From IMG/VR virus record IMGVR_UViG_3300029126_000035: DNA of 11,426 nucleotides. One strand, 5' to 3'. Made by a program: the position numbers and the translations under genes. Below are positions 2,779 through 11,426 of the stretch, piece after piece. The stretch is from a virus (taxonomy: Duplodnaviria > Heunggongvirae > Uroviricota > Caudoviricetes). Position 1 is the stretch's first letter, and each line of letters opens with the position of its first letter. The notes under the pieces were generated by a model. That model was given only the letters and a program-made list of their open reading frames with translations, was not told where the DNA came from and ran no database searches.

Positions 2779-5535
2779 ATGCGAAACATTGATCTTATCC
2801 GTCAGGTTATCAGTGCGTCTGAAAACAACTGGCCTCATGTGCTGGGCTGCCTGAACATAAATGTCCCTGACTCTCCGCGCCGTCATGCTCCCTGCCCTGC
2901 ATGTGGGGGCAAAGATCGATTCCGGTTCGATGACAACGGGCGCGGTAGCTTCATCTGTAATCAGTGCGGCGCTGGTGATGGGCTGGATTTAATTAAACGC
3001 GTAAATAACTGCGACACAACAGAGGCGGCGCTTCTTGCCGCTGATGTTCTGGGTATTGATTACCGGACAACGGAAACACCAGAAGCCACCAGCCAGAAAC
3101 GGGAACAACTGGAAACCGAGCGCCAGCGACGCGAACAGGAGCGCCTGAAAAGGGCAGAGAAGGACGAACAACAAAGACGGGATACGTTTTCCCGTCAGTT
3201 TGATGACATGCGCAGAAAGGCTGTAAACGGCAAATCTGATTATCTGGTTGCGAAAGGGGTAGGTGATTTTACATTCCCCGTGTTGCCCGATGGATCTCTG
3301 TTGCTGGCGCTGGTGGATAAATCCGGCGCAGTCACAGCAGCACAGACTATTACCTCACATGGTGAAAAAAGACTCCTGACAGGTTCAGCAAAGCGGGGGG
3401 CATATCACGCCATAAACGCACCAGAAACAACACAGAGCATCTTAATCGCAGAAGGTCTGGCAACGGCATTATCTGCCCATTTAATTCGTCCAGAGGCGCT
3501 GACAGTGGCGGCGATTGATGCCGGGAACCTGTTATATGTCGCCCAGGTACTGCGGGATAAATTTCCTTCAGCACAAATCATCATTGCTGCGGATAACGAC
3601 CACAGCGAAGGAAGACAAAACACGGGGAGAATAGCAGCAGAAAAAGCAGCTTTATCTGTTTCTGGATGGGTGGCATTACCCCCGACAGATCACAAAGCAG
3701 ACTGGAATGATTACCACCAAAAACACGGCATTAAATGCGCCACAGAAGCGTTCAATAAGTCAATGTACCAACCACAGGGTAATGGCGTGAAACAGGAGCC
3801 ACAGACCATTGAGGGAAGCGATTTTAAGGTTATGGATACCGACCCACTGAAACCAAGAATAGAAAGCCGCGAGGATGGTATTTATTGGGTATCTCCGAGA
3901 GCTGACAGCCAGAGTGGAGAAATCATCAATAACGAAAGCTGGTTATGTTCTCCGTTAAGCGTTATCGGTACTGGCAGAGACGATAAAGACCAGTATCTCA
4001 TTCTTCGCTGGCTGTCGTTTGGTTCTGAAACGCCGACAACCGCTGCCATTCCACTGGCTGATATTGGTGAACGTGAAGGATGGCGCACACTTAAAGCTGG
4101 TGGGGTAAATGTCACGACCAAAAGCAGCCTCAGAGCAATACTGGCAGACTGGCTACAACGCAGTGGCTCTCGTGAATTGTGGCGTGTTGCTCATGCCACT
4201 GGCTGGCAATGCGGAGCGTACATCATGCCTGATGGGGAAATCATCGGAACACCTGAAAATCCTGTGCTGTTCAGCGGGAGAAGCTCAGCCGCAGCCGGAT
4301 ATACCGTCTCAGGGAGCGCGAAAAGCTGGCGTGATAACGTGGCGCGTCTGGCCTTTGGTAACTATTCAATGATGACCGGGATCGGCGCAGCACTGGCAGC
4401 GCCATTGATTGGGCTGGTGGGCGCTGACGGGTTCGGCATTCATTTCTATGAGCAGTCGAGCGCAGGTAAGACCACCACGGCAAACGTGGCGAGCAGCTTA
4501 TACGGCAACCCTGATTTACTGCGGCTGACGTGGTACGGAACCGCGCTGGGGCTGGCAAATGAGGCCGCCGCCCACAATGACGGACTAATGCCGCTTGATG
4601 AAGTTGGTCAGGGCGCTGATCCTGTCAGCGTTTCACAGTCTGCCTATGCGTTATTTAACGGTGTAGGGAAACTGCAAGGCGCTAAAGATGGTGGAAACCG
4701 GGATCTAAAACGCTGGCGTACAGTGGCAATCAGCACCGGAGAAATGGATTTAGAAACATTTATCGCTACTTCCGGGCGAAAAACCAAAGCCGGGCAACTG
4801 GTGCGACTGCTGAATATTCCGTTGAGTAAAGCAGTACGCTTTCACGATTACCAGAACGGAAAACAGCACGCAGACGCACTGAAAGACGCTTACCAGCATC
4901 ACCACGGCGCGTCCGGGCGTGAGTGGATTAAATGGCTGGCACACCACCAGCAACAGGCTATTAAAACCGTTCGTGATTGCGAAAGCAGATGGAGAAGCCT
5001 GATCCCATCCGATTATGGTGAGCAGGTTCACCGTGTAGCCGCGCGATTTGCCATTCTGGAGGCAGCATTGCTGTTAGGCGAAGTTGTAACAGGCTGGGAT
5101 GCTCAGACATGCCGTGATGCGATACAGCACAGCTATAACGCATGGTTGCGCGAGTTCGGCACAGGTAACAAAGAACATCAGCAGATTATTGAACAAACGG
5201 AGGCATTTCTTAATGCCTATGGGCTTAGCCGTTTTGCACCATTTCCATACAGCCCGGCAGATTTGCCCATCAAAGATTTAGCCGGATACCGTCAGCGTGG
5301 AGAACATGACGAAAGCCCAATGATTTTCTACACATTCCCGGCCACATTTGAAAAGGAGATCGCATGTGGTTTCAACGCAAAACAGTTTGCTGAAGTGTTG
5401 AAAAAAGCCGGGATGCTAACCCCACCAAACAGCGGTCGTGGATACCAAAGAAAATCACCACGTATTCAGGGACGACAAACAAACGTTTATGTACTCAATT
5501 ACCAGCCAGGAGATTATAACTCATCTGAAGAATGA
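2779..5535 (+). CDS. P4 alpha-type DNA primase-helicase (zinc-ribbon + Toprim primase, P-loop helicase, C-terminal domain)
   Basis: CPAC...CNQC zinc-ribbon pattern (nt 2893-2967); Toprim-like IAEG (E225) and AADNDH (D272/D274, nt 3592-3600); Walker A SSAGKTT (K564 at nt 4468-4470); Walker B-like LMPLDE; 918 aa; iterons immediately downstream. Confidence 0.93.
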   Translation: MRNIDLIRQVISASENNWPHVLGCLNINVPDSPRRHAPCPACGGKDRFRFDDNGRGSFICNQCGAGDGLDLIKRVNNCDTTEAALLAADVLGIDYRTTETPEATSQKREQLETERQRREQERLKRAEKDEQQRRDTFSRQFDDMRRKAVNGKSDYLVAKGVGDFTFPVLPDGSLLLALVDKSGAVTAAQTITSHGEKRLLTGSAKRGAYHAINAPETTQSILIAEGLATALSAHLIRPEALTVAAIDAGNLLYVAQVLRDKFPSAQIIIAADNDHSEGRQNTGRIAAEKAALSVSGWVALPPTDHKADWNDYHQKHGIKCATEAFNKSMYQPQGNGVKQEPQTIEGSDFKVMDTDPLKPRIESREDGIYWVSPRADSQSGEIINNESWLCSPLSVIGTGRDDKDQYLILRWLSFGSETPTTAAIPLADIGEREGWRTLKAGGVNVTTKSSLRAILADWLQRSGSRELWRVAHATGWQCGAYIMPDGEIIGTPENPVLFSGRSSAAAGYTVSGSAKSWRDNVARLAFGNYSMMTGIGAALAAPLIGLVGADGFGIHFYEQSSAGKTTTANVASSLYGNPDLLRLTWYGTALGLANEAAAHNDGLMPLDEVGQGADPVSVSQSAYALFNGVGKLQGAKDGGNRDLKRWRTVAISTGEMDLETFIATSGRKTKAGQLVRLLNIPLSKAVRFHDYQNGKQHADALKDAYQHHHGASGREWIKWLAHHQQQAIKTVRDCESRWRSLIPSDYGEQVHRVAARFAILEAALLLGEVVTGWDAQTCRDAIQHSYNAWLREFGTGNKEHQQIIEQTEAFLNAYGLSRFAPFPYSPADLPIKDLAGYRQRGEHDESPMIFYTFPATFEKEIACGFNAKQFAEVLKKAGMLTPPNSGRGYQRKSPRIQGRQTNVYVLNYQPGDYNSSEE

Positions 5536-5560
5536 GCTTCTTCATGTGCGTAGAAAAGGT

Positions 5561-5672
5561 GTTGGTTCAGTTGGTTCAGTTGGTTCAATTTGCAAAGAGT
5601 ATTGTTTTGTAAGGATTTTATTCTTTTTATTGAACCAACACTGAACCAACAACACGGTATTTTGAACCAACA
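5561..5672. repeat. iteron array, probable replication origin: 3 direct GTTGGTTCA copies, AT-rich spacer, 3 inverted TGAACCAAC copies
   Basis: Perfect 9-mers at 5561-5569, 5570-5578, 5579-5587 and inverted copies at 5631-5639, 5642-5650, 5664-5672; 43-bp AT-rich spacer at 5588-5630; starts 25 bp after the primase stop. Confidence 0.75.
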
Positions 5673-5767
5673 CAATGTGACTGAATTGATGAGCACAACA
5701 TCTGGCTGGCATTAGAGAGTGTTTTACGAAATCTGAACACCACATCACTGGTTTCAGTGGGAGATTG

Positions 5768-6226
5768 ATGATGAAGATAATCGCAAAGGCTTTTCATCAT
5801 GTATTTGGCAAAGTATCCGATTTGCCATCTGTAATACCGATGAACAACAGAAGGGAGATGCTGCTTGATGTGGTTGTGTTCCCATACATAGACCTTTCTG
5901 AACCAATGAAAGCAACTCTTTTCAGAAAGTATCTTGGCGACTTTAAACGCCGTTTTACAGGCGTTAACGGGATGGTTGATATCTGCTCCATCAGAGATAT
6001 TGTTGAACTTGCAGGGATTAATTTGTGGGGAGAAGCGGCAGCAGCATACAAATGGCTTGAACGCCTGCACTGTGTTTCATTCAGTGACATGAGTGCTGAT
6101 ATCGCTTTAATGGTTCCTCACAAAATCAATATGGTCTTTGCTGGTGGCAATTACACTTATCCATGGAACCAGGAACAAAGAGAGAACAGGAAAGCTCACG
6201 CCATGAAGAGTAATGCGACTCCATAA
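5768..6226 (+). CDS. hypothetical protein (152 aa), AT-rich gene between origin and cargo operon
   Basis: ATG at 5768/5771 preceded by GGGAG 5759-5763; followed by a rho-independent terminator; the antisense 147-aa ORF is Cys/His/Trp-rich and looks spurious. Confidence 0.6.
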   Translation: MMKIIAKAFHHVFGKVSDLPSVIPMNNRREMLLDVVVFPYIDLSEPMKATLFRKYLGDFKRRFTGVNGMVDICSIRDIVELAGINLWGEAAAAYKWLERLHCVSFSDMSADIALMVPHKINMVFAGGNYTYPWNQEQRENRKAHAMKSNATP

Positions 6227-6279
6227 ATATAGTTTTTAGAGTCCATAAAAAAACTGTCAAAACCTGACATACAGAACGA

Positions 6280-6311
6280 TGCCACCAGCTACTGAACGGT
6301 GGCATTTTTTT
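6280..6311 (+). terminator. rho-independent terminator
   Basis: Stem TGCCACC (6280-6286) / GGTGGCA (6298-6304) followed by a T7 run at 6305-6311. Confidence 0.7.
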
Positions 6312-6367
6312 GTGCTATTTGTTTCATATTTTGCAATCACAATGATGAATGTTGCGTTTTATGAAAC

Positions 6368-6391
6368 TATAATGACTGTTGTTTTATACAG
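6368..6391 (+). promoter_or_regulatory. candidate SOS-regulated promoter: -10 TATAAT followed by LexA-box-like CTGT-N8-ACAG
   Basis: TATAAT at 6368-6373; CTGTTGTTTTATACAG at 6376-6391 matches the LexA consensus CTGT-(AT-rich 8)-ACAG; RBS AAGGGGG at 6396-6402 and ATG at 6407; -35 is weak. Confidence 0.5.
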
Positions 6392-6406
6392 TTCTAAGGG
6401 GGCGTT

Positions 6407-6580
6407 ATGGCTATTTCAGTAAAGCCAGTATTGATAAGTGAGAAGCAAATGGAAGCGATAAAGAAAATTCAGGAGGAGCAGCGTAAAAAATCAGAGGTAG
6501 GAGTTGCGCCAACGATCCACGAAATTGCTCGGGGATTAATGGATAAGGCGCTGGCTTACACTTTAACTGGACGTGGGTAA
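6407..6580 (+). CDS. small protein (57 aa), possible ribbon-helix-helix DNA-binding protein
   Basis: Not in the ORF track (under 60 aa) but a clean ATG-to-TAA frame with RBS; N-terminal strand-like VKPVLIS followed by two helical segments fits an RHH layout; first gene after the SOS-box promoter. Confidence 0.5.
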   Translation: MAISVKPVLISEKQMEAIKKIQEEQRKKSEVGVAPTIHEIARGLMDKALAYTLTGRG

Positions 6581-6584
6581 ATTT

Positions 6585-8051
6585 ATGGCTACGTGGCAAC
6601 AGGGTATTAATTCTGGTGGTTTTCTGGCTGGCATCGGTACGCAAAATGAGAATGCGCCAAAGGCAAGCGACATTAACGCAACGCTTGGTCTGATCCGCGA
6701 AAACAATGAACTGGCTCGCTCAGGTGCAAATAACGTTGCTCTGACAGGTCTTCGTGGTCTGGCTGGAGTTGCTGATATTTATAAGCAGCAGCAACAGCAG
6801 GAGCGTAAAGCGGCATTCCAGAAAGGTTATGCAGATGCTTATGCGTCCGGTGACAGGGAGCAGATGCGTAATCTTATTACAGCATTCCCAGAAGAGTTTG
6901 AGGAAGTCCGTAAAGGGATGAGTTATGTCGATGATGCTCAAAGGGATGATTATGGCAATCTGGCGCTCAAAGCACAGGTAGCCTCATCGCTTGGTCCGGG
7001 CGCATTTGGCAGGTTCATGATAGATAATGAGCAGGAGATGCGTCGTTTAGGTATCCCTCCAGAAACTATTGCTGAAATGCAGGTTAATGACCCGCAGGGC
7101 TTCCAGCATTTCGCAGGTAATCTGGCGCTGTTTTCTCTCGGTCATGAGAAGTATTTCGATATCAAAGATCAAATGGAAGGTCGGGATATTGAGCGTGGCA
7201 AGTTGGCAGAGACAATCCGCAGCAATCAGGCCAGCGAAGCACTTCAGGCGAGAGGGCAGGATATTAGCCGAGCAAATGCGTTAACGTCAGCATATGCACC
7301 AACAGCAGCAATGCAGAATTACAATCAGTACGCGCAAATGTTAAAGGTGGATCCAGAGGGGGCGGCGGCATTTGCGGCAGCGGCTGGAATTAATACAAAC
7401 GCCAAAAAATTAATGAGTGTTAGAGAAAACGATGATGGCACTGTCACAAAATACTACACAGACGGAAGTGAAGAGCAGGGAAAACTAAACCAGCCAATAT
7501 CTGGAGATGGGTTTCGTCCAATAGCTTTGCCAACAGCCCAAAAGATCATGGAAAAGTCGCCAGAAGGGGCTAAAAAAGCTGCTGGATTTGCATACAGGGT
7601 TAGGGATGCTCTTGATTCAATGGATACACTGAAAGACCAGCTTAGCCCACAGCGAGTGGCGGTCATTAATAATGCTTTGGGTAATGGGACGCTGGCTAAC
7701 TTAACGCTCAGCCCAACAGAGCAGCAATACGTTGTTAATGCTAATGACGCAATAATGGCAATACTCCGTCAGGAAACAGGGGCAGCTATCGTACCTGCTG
7801 AAATGTCAAAATATTATCAAATGTATTTCCCTCAGCCTGGCGACTCCACAAAAACCATTGATACCAAGCGCCGGAAGATGGAAAACCAGTTCAATTCGCT
7901 GAAAGCTGCTTCTGGTCGAGCTTATGATGCTTTGCGGGTTATTTCAGCAGTTGACAGAGGAACTTCTTCTTCGTCGCAGACATTGCCGCAATCTGAGCAG
8001 GTATCACAGCCAGCAGCCAGCAGTAACTTTTCTTCACTATGGGGTGATTAA
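6585..8051 (+). CDS. hypothetical large helical protein (488 aa), Ala/Gln/Glu-rich, unknown function
   Basis: ATG 6585 lies 4 nt after the stop of the small gene (alternative GTG at 6573); polyQ run KQQQQQ; no P-loop or catalytic motif I recognise; stop overlaps the next start (TAATG). Confidence 0.8.
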   Translation: MATWQQGINSGGFLAGIGTQNENAPKASDINATLGLIRENNELARSGANNVALTGLRGLAGVADIYKQQQQQERKAAFQKGYADAYASGDREQMRNLITAFPEEFEEVRKGMSYVDDAQRDDYGNLALKAQVASSLGPGAFGRFMIDNEQEMRRLGIPPETIAEMQVNDPQGFQHFAGNLALFSLGHEKYFDIKDQMEGRDIERGKLAETIRSNQASEALQARGQDISRANALTSAYAPTAAMQNYNQYAQMLKVDPEGAAAFAAAAGINTNAKKLMSVRENDDGTVTKYYTDGSEEQGKLNQPISGDGFRPIALPTAQKIMEKSPEGAKKAAGFAYRVRDALDSMDTLKDQLSPQRVAVINNALGNGTLANLTLSPTEQQYVVNANDAIMAILRQETGAAIVPAEMSKYYQMYFPQPGDSTKTIDTKRRKMENQFNSLKAASGRAYDALRVISAVDRGTSSSSQTLPQSEQVSQPAASSNFSSLWGD

Positions 8052-10156
8052 TGGCTAAAGCATGGAAAGATGTTATCGCCTCTCCACAGTATCAGGCGTT
8101 AGCACCAGAACAAAAAGCGCAGGCTCAGGAGCAATACTTCAATGAAGTCGTTGCCCCGCAAGCCGGAGAAAGTGTAGAGCAGGCTAAGCAGGCTTTTTAT
8201 GCTGCCTATCCACTACCATCAACGAATGAAATAGACCGATACCAATCAGCAACTCAAAATATTCAACATACATCATCTGATAATTCTCTTGCGTCAGGGT
8301 ATGCAAAGTTAGCTACTCAGCAAAGAGAGGGGCTTGAGCGTTCAGCAGAACAGGGAGCCAGTCTTGGGGCTGCGATGCGCGATGCTATAACAGGCGAAAG
8401 CCGAATGACTCCAGAGATGGAGAGACTGCAAAATGTCGACCTTGCCCCAGAGTTAACCTCACTCAGCATGGATGCTCTAAAAGCTCGATGGTCTCAACTT
8501 TTCGGCTCTGACGCATCTCAGGAAAAGATTCTTCAGAGCATGGGAGCGAAATTAAGGCAGGATGAGAAGGGTAACACTATCGTTTCCCTGCCATCCGGTG
8601 ATTATGCTCTGAACAAGCCGGGTTTATCGCCGCAAGACGTGGCATCGTTTCTGGCTAATGCGCTGGCGTTTACACCAGCGGGCAGGGCCGGAACGGTGCT
8701 GGGGGCCATAGGGAAATCAGCAGCTACAGATTTAGCACTACAGGGAGCCACCAGCCTTGCTGGTGGAGAAGATATTGATCCGTTACAAACGGTAATTTCT
8801 GCTGGCATTGGCGGCATTGGTAAGGGGCTGGAGAATACAGCGAGTGCGGTTTCGAGGGCTGTTCGTGGTGATATGGCACCGGAAGCGAAAGCTGCTGTTG
8901 ATTTTGCATCGGAAAGAAACCTGCCGTTAATGACCAGTGACGTACTGAAAGATAAAAACACTGTGCAGAGTCTGGCCCAGAAAACAGGCGAAAAAATCCC
9001 TTTTTTTGGAACGGGTACGAACAGGTTGAATCAACAACAGGCACGGGAAAATCTGGTCAGAACATATAACGATGGTCTGGGAGGCATTTCAGATAAACAG
9101 CTTTATGAATCTGCGACTAAAGGGCAGCAAAAATTCATTGAGGCCGCAGGAAAGCGATATAACCGCATAATTGACGCTATGGGGGATACCCCTGTCGATC
9201 TCTCAAACACGGTAAAAGCTATCGACAATCAGATTGCCGTGTTAAGCCGCCCGGGCAAATCTCAGGATAGAGCCGCGGTAAAAGTCTTGCAGCAATTTAA
9301 AGACGATATCACCAGCGGACCAAATGACCTGCGTCTGGCGAGAGAAAACAGAACTGACCTTCGAAAGCGGTTCATGAATTCAAACGAGACAGTTGATAAA
9401 GACACGCTCCAGAAAGCCAGCGATATTGTCTACAAGGCATATACGCTGGATATGAGAAGGGCAGTAGCCCAGAAACTGGGTTCAGAAGAAGCAGCCAATA
9501 TGGCAAGGGTCGATCGCTCATGGTCTAAATTCAATGACATGATGGGAAGAACGCGCGTTCAGAAGGCAATAGCCAGCGGCAAGGCTACGCCTGAGGATGT
9601 AACAAAACTCGTTTTTAGCCAAAGCTCATCAGAACGTTCTCAGCTTTACAGGCTTCTGGATGACAACGGCAGGCAGAACGCACGGGCAGCCATAATACAG
9701 AATGCTGTAGATAAGGCGACTGATTCGGCGGGGAATATCAGCGTTGAGAAGTTTATTAACACGCTACACCGGAACAGAAAGCAATCCGCAACGTTCTTTA
9801 AGGGCGTGCACGGAAAGGAACTGGACGGCATTATTAAATACCTCAACGATACCAGACAGGCGGCAAAGGTTGACGGTCAGAAATTAAACAGCCAGAAACT
9901 TTATGGCCTGCTGGTTGGTGGAGGCGCTATAAATGCGGCAGTTCTGGCGGGGATGCTGAAAACGGCTGCGTTTGTTGTTCCTGCTGCAGGTGCCGTAGGC
10001 GGAGCAGCGAAGGCATACGAAAGCCCTGTTATACGAAATGCCTTGTTACGTCTGGCAAATACGCCAAAAGGTAGCACAGCATATGACAGAGCGATCAGTA
10101 CGGTCACACAATCACTGACCACAGCAGCACAAGCATCGCAAAAGGAAGCTCAATAA
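8051..10156 (+). CDS. hypothetical large protein (701 aa) with C-terminal Gly/Ala-rich hydrophobic hairpin, unknown function
   Basis: ATG 8051 overlaps upstream stop; Ala/Gln/Lys-rich helical composition; hydrophobic segment LYGLLVGGGAINAAVLAGMLKTAAFVVPAAGAVGGAA at residues ~616-656 (nt 9896-10018); no canonical Walker A. Confidence 0.85.
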   Translation: MAKAWKDVIASPQYQALAPEQKAQAQEQYFNEVVAPQAGESVEQAKQAFYAAYPLPSTNEIDRYQSATQNIQHTSSDNSLASGYAKLATQQREGLERSAEQGASLGAAMRDAITGESRMTPEMERLQNVDLAPELTSLSMDALKARWSQLFGSDASQEKILQSMGAKLRQDEKGNTIVSLPSGDYALNKPGLSPQDVASFLANALAFTPAGRAGTVLGAIGKSAATDLALQGATSLAGGEDIDPLQTVISAGIGGIGKGLENTASAVSRAVRGDMAPEAKAAVDFASERNLPLMTSDVLKDKNTVQSLAQKTGEKIPFFGTGTNRLNQQQARENLVRTYNDGLGGISDKQLYESATKGQQKFIEAAGKRYNRIIDAMGDTPVDLSNTVKAIDNQIAVLSRPGKSQDRAAVKVLQQFKDDITSGPNDLRLARENRTDLRKRFMNSNETVDKDTLQKASDIVYKAYTLDMRRAVAQKLGSEEAANMARVDRSWSKFNDMMGRTRVQKAIASGKATPEDVTKLVFSQSSSERSQLYRLLDDNGRQNARAAIIQNAVDKATDSAGNISVEKFINTLHRNRKQSATFFKGVHGKELDGIIKYLNDTRQAAKVDGQKLNSQKLYGLLVGGGAINAAVLAGMLKTAAFVVPAAGAVGGAAKAYESPVIRNALLRLANTPKGSTAYDRAISTVTQSLTTAAQASQKEAQ

Positions 10157-10218
10157 CAGATGGCCATGGATGGTTGGTTATAATAGTAATTAGTATTTTT
10201 TTCAAATAGTTATGAACA

Positions 10219-10617
10219 TTAACACTTGCCTTTAACATTGCCGACAAATGAGCCTGTAAATGAGCCTATATCAGATCGACTAATTGTTCGTGTATGGATC
10301 ACTTTTCCGTCATTTGAGATTGCCCATGTGACAAGCGTCAGTTGACCATCTCGATAGCTTCTTCCCATCATGGCATTCGGAGATAGCGGGTAATAATCAA
10401 TACCTCCACCTATACCATCTTTTGCCAAGATAAGATCCGCCTTCTCTTTACTTATTACCAAATGAAAGGTATCTGGTATAGATGATAACTTATAGTTATA
10501 CCCATCTGAACTTGAGGCTTCTTGTCCTTTCAGATCACCAATAATCCAGCATTCAGCGTTCGCTCCAAAAGAAGCAAATAATAAACCGGAGACAACCAAT
10601 CGCTTCAATTGATTCAC
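10219..10617 (-). CDS. small Sec-exported (periplasmic) protein, mature ~111 aa, with N- and C-terminal cysteines
   Basis: GTG start at 10617 preceded by AGGGAGG; signal peptide MNQLKRLVVSGLLFASFGANA with ANA-E cleavage motif; no transmembrane stretch in mature part; the longer in-frame ORF up to 10905 is a probable shadow. Confidence 0.65.
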   Translation of the reverse strand: MNQLKRLVVSGLLFASFGANAECWIIGDLKGQEASSSDGYNYKLSSIPDTFHLVISKEKADLILAKDGIGGGIDYYPLSPNAMMGRSYRDGQLTLVTWAISNDGKVIHTRTISRSDIGSFTGSFVGNVKGKC

Positions 10618-11086
10618 ACCAACCCTCCCTTTAGCGTTGTTTAGAATGGCAATCATCATATATCCAAGACATGGCATTTGGTACATAGCTTGGGTCGGGA
10701 TTTCAAATCCGCCCCCGTTGATGGGGTCGTTACAGTACGCGCATATCCGCTTTATGTGAAACAGGAAGATTTTTCTGATATCACTGCCACAGCAAAACAC
10801 CAATTTCGAGACAAGTACGCGCACGATGGAGGGGAGTACCATAAAACTGTTCTCTACATAAGTCAGAGTGGTGGCGATGTGTTGATTATCGGCGTATATG
10901 CGCACAGGACGCGCTATGACAATGTTTTATGCGGGTACACCAATCACATGTATCTGGTGTGATAAATCGCGTTACATGACATCTCATGTTGTGCTGGTGG
11001 TTATCACGACGTTCTGAATCTGGCCTTTGCCTGATATTTTGCGACAAGTACGCGCGCGTAGCATCGACAGCATACACATTGGATAT

Positions 11087-11287
11087 TCATTTTGTGACCA
11101 ATGCGATAAGTAGCGGGATAAGAATTGATAAAATCAACAGGACGATGATCCACTTTTGATTCTCGTCCATCTTATCTGCTAGGCGACGCTCCATTCCGTG
11201 CATATCACCGCGAATGGCAATCATCTCATTGCGAACATCCGAGAAGTGGTTGGCTTGATGTTCAATGTGTGGCGTTCTGCCTTTCAT
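11087..11287 (-). CDS. small C-terminally anchored membrane protein (66 aa), topology like XhlA-type phage proteins
   Basis: ATG 11285-11287 with GAGGA RBS upstream on minus strand; polar/charged N-terminal half then a single hydrophobic helix WIIVLLILSILIPLLIALV at the C-terminus. Confidence 0.55.
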   Translation of the reverse strand: MKGRTPHIEHQANHFSDVRNEMIAIRGDMHGMERRLADKMDENQKWIIVLLILSILIPLLIALVTK

Positions 11288-11426
11288 GTCTGATCCTCAC
11301 CTATCGTCACCACCTGCTGGTGTATAAAGGTATTGGCCCAAGCAGCTTCCCAATGGGCACTCATGTTTATACGCTGACCTTACAATCAATCACCGCTTTT
11401 AACTTTTCAGCATTGCTTCCCTGACG

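Follow-up and report, generated by a model that had tools for sequence, protein, structure and literature searches.

The stretch of DNA analysed here (IMG/VR record IMGVR_UViG_3300029126_000035, Caudoviricetes; its whole length of 11,426 nucleotides is called the window below) carries on the plus strand two adjoining genes for phage DNA-ejection proteins and is part of an Escherichia coli element of about 16.5 kb. The second of these genes (8051–10156) encodes a protein of 701 amino acids (aa) which, judged by homology and gene order, is a full-length member of the P22 gp16-type DNA-ejection (DNA transfer) family. Near its C-terminus lies a Gly/Ala-rich hydrophobic hairpin (aa 616–656, positions 9896–10018, plus strand), which we regard with moderate confidence as a module that would refold during DNA injection and either enter the cytoplasmic membrane or assemble against it. 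An original prediction, made from the sequence alone, had loosely likened hairpin and operon to pore-forming colicins and, as a second analogy, to secretion translocators.

The family assignment is based on a match to PHROG 770 ('DNA transfer protein'), which aligns aa 19–700 with profile positions 3–667 of 668 (E 2.4e-155), and on BLASTP homology to P22 gp16 over aa 210–683 (30% identity, E 7e-53). As in the family, the gene stands directly after, and is coupled to, a homologue of gene 20 (6573–8051, plus strand), whose 492-aa product matches Pfam Inj_translocase PF16928 (E 1.5e-84) and PHROG 917 (E 1e-143); in the sequence TAATG at 8049–8053 the stop codon of the gp20-type gene overlaps the start codon of the gp16-type gene by one base. 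Homologues that are 68–86% identical sit in canonical P22-like prophages with the order portal, coat, gp4, gp10, gp26, gp14, gp7, gp20 and gp16, and are tagged PF26808 (Phage_P22_gp16). The link to PF26808 rests on these precomputed tags, the 701-aa protein itself having been scored against PHROG 770; an hmmscan of the protein against Pfam-A at E <= 1 returned a weak match to Htt_bridge alone, and phmmer against all PDB chains with the same cut-off returned no match. ORF13 (open reading frame 13) of the Lederbergvirus Escherichia phage N7 is 66% identical and follows gp7 and gp20. Together with the 663–671-aa 'injection proteins' of Salmonella, Citrobacter and E. coli prophages it forms a set 66–86% identical to our protein over aa 61–701, all encoded after gp7 and gp20 in complete P22-like genomes. 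Counted as representatives of 50%-identity clusters at E <= 1e-3, the family has 1375 members.

With P22 gp16 the protein shares the gene order, a start codon overlapping the stop of gene 20, the motif frame around the hairpin and a convergent prophage-type gene directly downstream. It differs in length (P22 gp16 has 609 aa), in the identity of that downstream gene, which is sieA in P22 and another gene here, and in being encoded in a primase island instead of a complete prophage. Its N-terminal ~200 residues are mosaic in comparison with P22. Over aa 1–60 it is unrelated to its otherwise closest relatives P0005, P0011 and P0028 (3% identity), as it is to N7 ORF13 and the injection proteins, and within this stretch (8051–8230) aa 1–56 are about 75% identical to the gp16 N-terminus of HK620 / vB_EcoP-611R6. 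This N-terminal swap is a mosaic joint typical of ejection proteins.

Translation of 9896–10018 gives exactly KLYGLLVGGGAINAAVLAGMLKTAAFVVPAAGAVGGAAKAY, and 45 residues remain to the C-terminus of the ORF, in agreement with the position and composition originally proposed for the segment. Gly and Ala make up 49% of it, Asp, Glu, Arg, Gln and Ser are absent and three Lys are present; polar or charged residues (DEKRHNQ) number four, against a median of 16 per 41-aa window of the protein. In a Kyte-Doolittle scan with a 19-residue mean, values above 1.2 were reached solely in the hairpin stretch, with a peak of 1.73 at residue 631. Our own implementation of a TopPred-style scan for transmembrane (TM) segments on the Goldman-Engelman-Steitz (GES) scale classed it as 'certain' (1.39), with window centres at 623–648, so that two adjacent helices fit: arm 1 at aa 617–636 (9899–9958), a turn at Lys637 between the arms and arm 2 at aa 638–653 (9962–10009). 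The hydropathy maximum for 41-aa windows was 1.18, compared to 0.69 +/- 0.21 in shuffled versions of the 701-aa protein, and was reached by 49 of 2000 shuffles, which makes the segment modestly unusual. The small-xxx-small spacing, pointed out at first, is accounted for by composition: nine such spacings were counted and 8.6 +/- 1.6 are found in shuffles (P = 0.52).

The remainder of the protein had been called hydrophilic. It is not uniformly so: a second Gly/Ala-rich region of weaker, moderate hydrophobicity is present at aa ~191–260. The GES scan places a 'putative' peak at aa 201–221, and we list aa 201–270 (8651–8860, plus strand) as the first Gly/Ala-rich, conformationally uncertain region of the protein. 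Its counterpart in P22 gp16 is the Gly/Ala-rich region in which that protein reaches its highest hydrophobic peak (aa 128–148).

A stronger argument for the hairpin than single-sequence shuffles is its conservation at the same position across the family. An alignment of 128 diverse full-length gp16-type representatives revealed a fixed frame consisting of (P)TGQ, a Gly/Ala-rich stretch and then R-x-Y-E-S-x-x-V-R-N-x-L-L-R-L. The stretch has a median of 34 residues, a mean of 39% Gly plus Ala, about two charged residues and usually a polar D/N-P turn in the middle, and it contains the hydropathy maximum of the protein in 64% of the representatives. Our segment is the longest (41 aa) and ranks ninth of 128 by hydrophobicity. 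Directly after it the motif K/R-x-Y-E-S-x-x-V/I-R-N is present at aa 654–663 (10010–10039, plus strand), with Y656, E657, S658 and R662 each conserved in at least 90% of the family alignment. The C-terminal frame is thus found with its YES and R motifs and its Gly/Ala-rich segment, while TGQ has diverged to NSQ: the (P)TGQ motif reads LNSQ at aa 612–615 (9884–9895, plus strand). The column of S614 holds Gly in 123 of 128 representatives, and in the multiple alignment it is the near-invariant Gly532 of P22 that is aligned there. LNSQ is shared by the clusters P0001 and P0002 (97–99% identical to the window protein), and other relatives with the same type of hairpin keep LNGQ, among them P0005, encoded in a P22-like prophage, and P0003, encoded on short contigs with orf57-gp20-gp16.

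Between almost identical flanks, close relatives carry one of two discrete hairpin types. Type 1 is found here and in P0005 (86% identical), type 2 (PLTGQ...AGPAAL...) in N7 and the Salmonella proteins. Compared with P0028 and P0099 the hairpin is 30–32% identical, against 52–79% in the other compared segments, the swapped aa 1–60 aside. In these alignments the hairpin is the most divergent internal part of the protein, and only the swapped N-terminal 60 residues diverge more. The P22 segment marks the opposite end of the family range: it has 32 aa and is amphipathic with R/K/E, whereas the 41-aa segment here is strongly hydrophobic. In the subtype formed by our protein and the N7 type, the hairpin is the strongest membrane candidate of the protein, a place taken in P22 by the Gly/Ala-rich region nearer the N-terminus.

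In P22-like phages about a dozen copies of gp16 reside in the head and are expelled through the tail ahead of the DNA. In P22, gp16 builds a trans-envelope conduit with gp7 and gp20, of which gp16 forms the cytoplasmic-membrane end. By homology the 701-aa protein would play the same part; packaging into the virion, ejection at infection, the requirement for DNA entry and membrane association are known for P22 only (PMC10461980, PMC8402733). P22 gp16 is known to associate with membranes and to promote the uptake of DNA by liposomes, and gp7, gp20 and gp16 are all needed for K+ release (PMC10461980). According to the abstract of a 2026 preprint (PMC13622523), gp7*, gp20 and gp16 assemble one after another to form a channel, about 50 nm long, which extends as far as the cytoplasm.

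A link between the hairpin region and the membrane step comes from SieA, an inner-membrane exclusion protein which blocks P22 injection (PMC10461980). P22 escapes SieA only if gp16 carries G532W and P546S and the C-terminal part of gp20 is altered as well; the same paper locates the gp16 changes only to 'C-terminal regions'. In our multiple alignment P22 Gly532 coincides with the glycine of TGQ, immediately ahead of the hairpin, and Pro546 with the central turn, in the column of A633. The pairwise BLAST alignment puts Gly532 on G623 and Pro546 on K637. Under either alignment, and the mapping is ours, both escape positions would lie in or next to the hairpin.

Structure prediction agreed with the long helical body of the original description. 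A full-length AlphaFold2 model, built with an alignment of 140 sequences, is all-helical. Its mean pLDDT (predicted local distance difference test) is 81.9 and its pTM (predicted template modelling score) 0.62. Only aa 68–78, 201–270 and 623–639 fall below a pLDDT of 50, with values of 34–45 across aa 201–270. In a separate model of aa 490–701 the pLDDT is 34–47 at aa 614–649 and above 90 in the flanks. Since pLDDT is low in both models, the hairpin is neither buried among the core helices of a soluble domain, the arrangement that had been named as speaking against the original interpretation, nor confidently placed in any other way.

From these observations we propose the following sequence of events for the hairpin as a membrane-directed refolding module. 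In the virion it would be soluble or masked. After ejection it would refold and, coming from the periplasm, enter the cytoplasmic membrane or pack against it; several copies could cluster there by small-residue helix packing and thereby open a pathway for DNA and K+. SieA-type exclusion proteins of P22-like phages would act on the same hairpin surface, and such targeting would explain why the hairpin is hypervariable and swappable between conserved flanks. A comparable scheme exists for T7 gp16: its putative TM regions have been proposed to be folded and soluble in the virion and to refold into the cytoplasmic membrane, and putative C-terminal TM helices are noted in all gp16-like homologues in a review (PMC8954989). 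T7 gp16 is likewise ejected from the head, largely helical and the cytoplasmic-membrane component of the DNA ejectosome (PMC8954989), a functional analogue of the 701-aa protein, which also has two Gly/Ala-rich, low-confidence regions. The likeness does not reach the sequence level: no similarity was detectable in any search made, and T7 gp16 has 1318 aa with an N-terminal lytic transglycosylase domain, of which none was found here.

Several observations weigh against membrane insertion. The position-independent Hessa-scale sum for the best 19-mer is +3.3 kcal/mol in the 701-aa protein and has a median of +5.7 kcal/mol in the 128 representatives; being positive, it does not predict classical TM insertion, and the hydrophobicity of the family hairpins is marginal, which sets them apart from classical Sec-type TM helices. 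The arms of typical family members measure only about 12–15 residues on either side of the polar D/N-P turn, and the P22 segment fails the TM score of the GES scan for too little hydrophobicity. P22 gp16 lacking aa 476–609 is still membrane-associated in vitro, according to the account of Perez et al. 2009 given in PMC10461980, so that in P22 the C-terminal segment is not needed for membrane binding. The island copy, moreover, is found in a window without gp7, head or tail genes and may therefore never be packaged.

The main rival is a protein-protein interface, with the hairpin serving gp16 oligomerisation or docking to gp20, portal or scaffold; SieA escape would then map to the hairpin because SieA blocks assembly of the interface. 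We consider this possible, though rather unlikely. Marginal hydrophobicity with short arms in most family members and the dispensability of aa 476–609 fit it, and low pLDDT in a monomer model, typical of fold-on-binding segments, may reflect an oligomer or partner interface just as well as a membrane segment. SieA escape, moreover, requires changes in the C-terminal part of gp20 as well as in gp16, and gp16 and gp20 function only if they come from the same phage (PMC10461980). On the other side, the segment is devoid of charged or aromatic interface residues and is the site of the hydropathy maximum in the 64% of representatives mentioned above. The loci L006 and L021 share the type-1 hairpin (86–92%) with gp20 C-terminal halves that are only 17–30% identical to that of the window, so hairpin type does not track gp20 type. 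A specific docking site for the gp20 C-terminus, tried as a candidate, is weakened by this lack of co-variation.

The resemblance to colicins was assessed separately. Pore-forming colicins (A/E1/Ia, PF01024) also contain a helical hairpin of about 40 residues rich in Ala, Gly, Val and Leu in a water-soluble helical protein. By analogy, both would insert post-translationally into the cytoplasmic membrane, coming from the periplasm, and blocking of the P22 machine by inner-membrane SieA recalls an immunity protein as a functional analogy only. A colicin-like pore-forming toxin used in bacterial competition, driven by an SOS promoter and paired with an immunity-like gene downstream, would account for such a hairpin towards the C-terminal end of a long helical protein, for the candidate LexA box at the operon promoter and for the convergent downstream gene with an exported product (both described below). 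We nevertheless judge it extremely improbable. A Pfam colicin domain (PF01024) was not matched at E <= 1, the family scans revealed no translocation domain of the Tol/Ton type, and the comparison of structures showed no likeness to a colicin pore domain: Foldseek against the PDB yielded no relative (best E 0.13), colicin pore domains were absent from all fold-search lists, and the model does not show a globular bundle of ten helices around a buried hairpin. Homology to a virion ejection family is clear and full-length, and includes the synteny with gp20. Delivery in the gp16 family is by ejection from the virion, in contrast to Tol/Ton import. The locus is chromosomal, neither the ORFs of the window nor the annotation of the island include a lysis gene, and a multi-pass immunity protein is missing. 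The downstream gene belongs to the Sf6 gp38 / 434 Hex moron type that also follows gene 16 in phage Emek. We rejected the toxin reading with neither a Pfam nor a PDB sequence match to it, and this lead was closed, the hairpin being nothing out of the ordinary among P22 gp16-type proteins, where it occurs throughout the family. Of the two analogies first drawn, the one to secretion translocators survives in the form of the P22 ejection family and the one to a colicin operon fails on the missing colicin match and the coupling to gp20. A partial functional parallel may persist in P22, where sieA follows gene 16 convergently, its product blocks the gp16/gp20 conduit and the escape changes align at the hairpin.

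The two ejection genes are preceded on the plus strand by orf57 (6407–6580), a leader ORF of 57 aa with unassigned function, which precedes the ejection genes also in the island variants L001, L007 and L021. It had no family match in Pfam, PHROG and NCBIfam scans, and an NCBIfam scan of six local proteins gave zero matches. Upstream of orf57 we located a candidate SOS promoter (6368–6391, plus strand), composed of TATAAT at 6368–6373 and CTGT-N8-ACAG at 6376–6391. The LexA-box core ACTGTTGTTTTATACAGT begins 2 nt past the TATAAT and ends 16 nt before the ATG of orf57; it is the single exact match to CTGT-N8-ACAG in the window. The arrangement TATAAT-NN-CTGT-N8-ACAG recurs in L001 and L007, and a terminator-like hairpin at 6288–6310 parts the promoter from the upstream gene. 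SOS-like control had been suspected before, and with its exact motif the locus is a candidate case of island-borne virion-protein genes under direct SOS control; a promoter of this kind is not peculiar to colicins.

The convergent gene downstream (10219–10659, minus strand) encodes about 146 aa with a signal-peptide-like N-terminus (...LLFASFGANA/EC...). This is its one signal-like segment, which bears out the earlier remark that the product is no multi-pass immunity protein. It matches PHROG 2651 (E 5e-22) and, in tblastn, is 29–34% identical to Sf6 gene 38, to the 'repressor protection protein' of phage 434 (Hex; PMC3564112) and to Emek orf129. The gp16-type gene of phage Emek is likewise followed directly by a convergent homologue, and coordinates place one there in ST-35 too. 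In view of this shared position the block of gp20, gp16 and convergent gene is a P22-like module, not a toxin-immunity pair. P22 has sieA at this position, directly after gene 16, and relatives hold unrelated small membrane proteins there. A SieA homologue was considered for the downstream gene and rejected, as it resembles neither P22 SieA nor the convergent genes of L004, L006 and N7. Members of the Sf6 gp38/Hex family sit beside cI or in the sieA position, hence the gene may be a prophage-expressed exclusion or conversion gene.

The element to which the window belongs lies between yicC and dinD (L001 10855–27360) and is flanked by 24-nt direct repeats 16,482 bp apart. In L001 it begins with genes for an integrase, a hypothetical protein, AlpA, a second hypothetical protein, AntA/AntB, DUF4222, ash (pseudogene), an Icd-like protein and several small ORFs. 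It ends with a TOPRIM/DUF927 primase, a 153-aa ORF, orf57, the two ejection genes, small opposite-strand genes and PerC. Integrase, AlpA, primase-replicase and direct repeats are thus present, and capsid and terminase genes are absent, as is typical of satellites. The set of integrase, AlpA, AntA/AntB, ash, Icd-like and TOPRIM/DUF927 primase genes gives the island the look of a P4-like or phage-inducible chromosomal island (PICI)-like satellite. Neither the window nor L001 contains gp7, coat, portal or tail genes, and P22-type gp20 and gp16 are the only virion-related genes of the island. After the primase gene, at 5561–5673, three tandem GTTGGTTCA repeats with 9-nt spacing stand opposite three inverted copies TGAACCAAC across an AT-rich spacer, which looks like an iteron-type replication origin. 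In the leftward gene set a 66-aa ORF (11087–11287, minus strand) with a C-terminal hydrophobic segment WIIVLLILSILIPLLIALV matches PHROG 6324 (E 3e-15, function unassigned); its product is probably a small tail-anchored membrane protein.

The ejection cassette varies between loci. A scan of genome contigs returned 14 loci, mostly canonical P22-like prophages, and one island variant, L007 (7200–11236), in which gp14-gp7-gp20-gp16 follow a 99% identical primase. L023 (9368–11953) holds gp14 and a gp7::gp16 fusion with gp20 missing; L021 (552–4274) and L022 hold orf57-gp20-gp16, the C-terminal half of gp20 differing in L021. This suggests repeated exchange with P22-like phages or partial decay. 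On another view the island copy would be a piece of a P22-like late operon that was captured and is now decaying, with a hairpin of no current use to the element, whatever its role in phages. The missing gp7, coat, portal and tail genes and the differing states of the cassette in L007 and L023 would agree with this, as would the gp20-like gene, which differs between window and L001 at seven non-synonymous and five synonymous codons. However, both ejection ORFs are intact and still coupled, and the gp16-type gene differs from L001 at 15 synonymous and four non-synonymous codons, none of them in the hairpin, a pattern of purifying selection. The dedicated promoter with its candidate LexA box is kept in two island variants. 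The element is also widespread: 150 of 5426 complete E. coli genomes contain at least 80% of window 5500–11426, and the protein cluster 97% identical to the 701-aa protein has 2417 members. Decay of this copy is on this evidence improbable.

A further, speculative and rather doubtful idea is that the island is a satellite of P22-like helpers which supplies its own SOS-induced ejection proteins, the hairpin together with Ser614 allowing entry into SieA-protected cells. Hijacked virions would then carry satellite-encoded gp20 and gp16, in variants also gp14 and gp7, and helper lysogens would be exactly such SieA-protected cells. The RefSeq annotation of the island names no P4 sid/psu/delta or PICI capsid-redirection/packaging gene, no profile search having been aimed at these, and we located no relevant report in the literature searched on satellites that carry ejection-protein genes.

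In summary, the 701-aa protein adds a member to the established P22 gp16 family, and its hairpin is a feature of a known kind, for which we provide a sharper map. The possibility of higher interest lies in the satellite context and not in the hairpin itself. Intact and apparently SOS-controlled ejection genes are present in a widespread island with integrase, AlpA and primase; if they are functional, satellites could re-equip the injection machinery of stolen virions. Should this be true, the hairpin would be a specificity determinant in an arms race between exclusion and ejection, with a satellite as participant. In these proteins the Gly/Ala-rich module between TGQ and YES varies more than any other internal part, is left unfixed by AlphaFold and is where the SieA-escape changes of P22 gp16 align. 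These observations point to the module as the contact zone of injection conduit, cytoplasmic membrane and exclusion proteins, and the map offers a defined target for mutagenesis and for reading in situ structures of the P22 channel.

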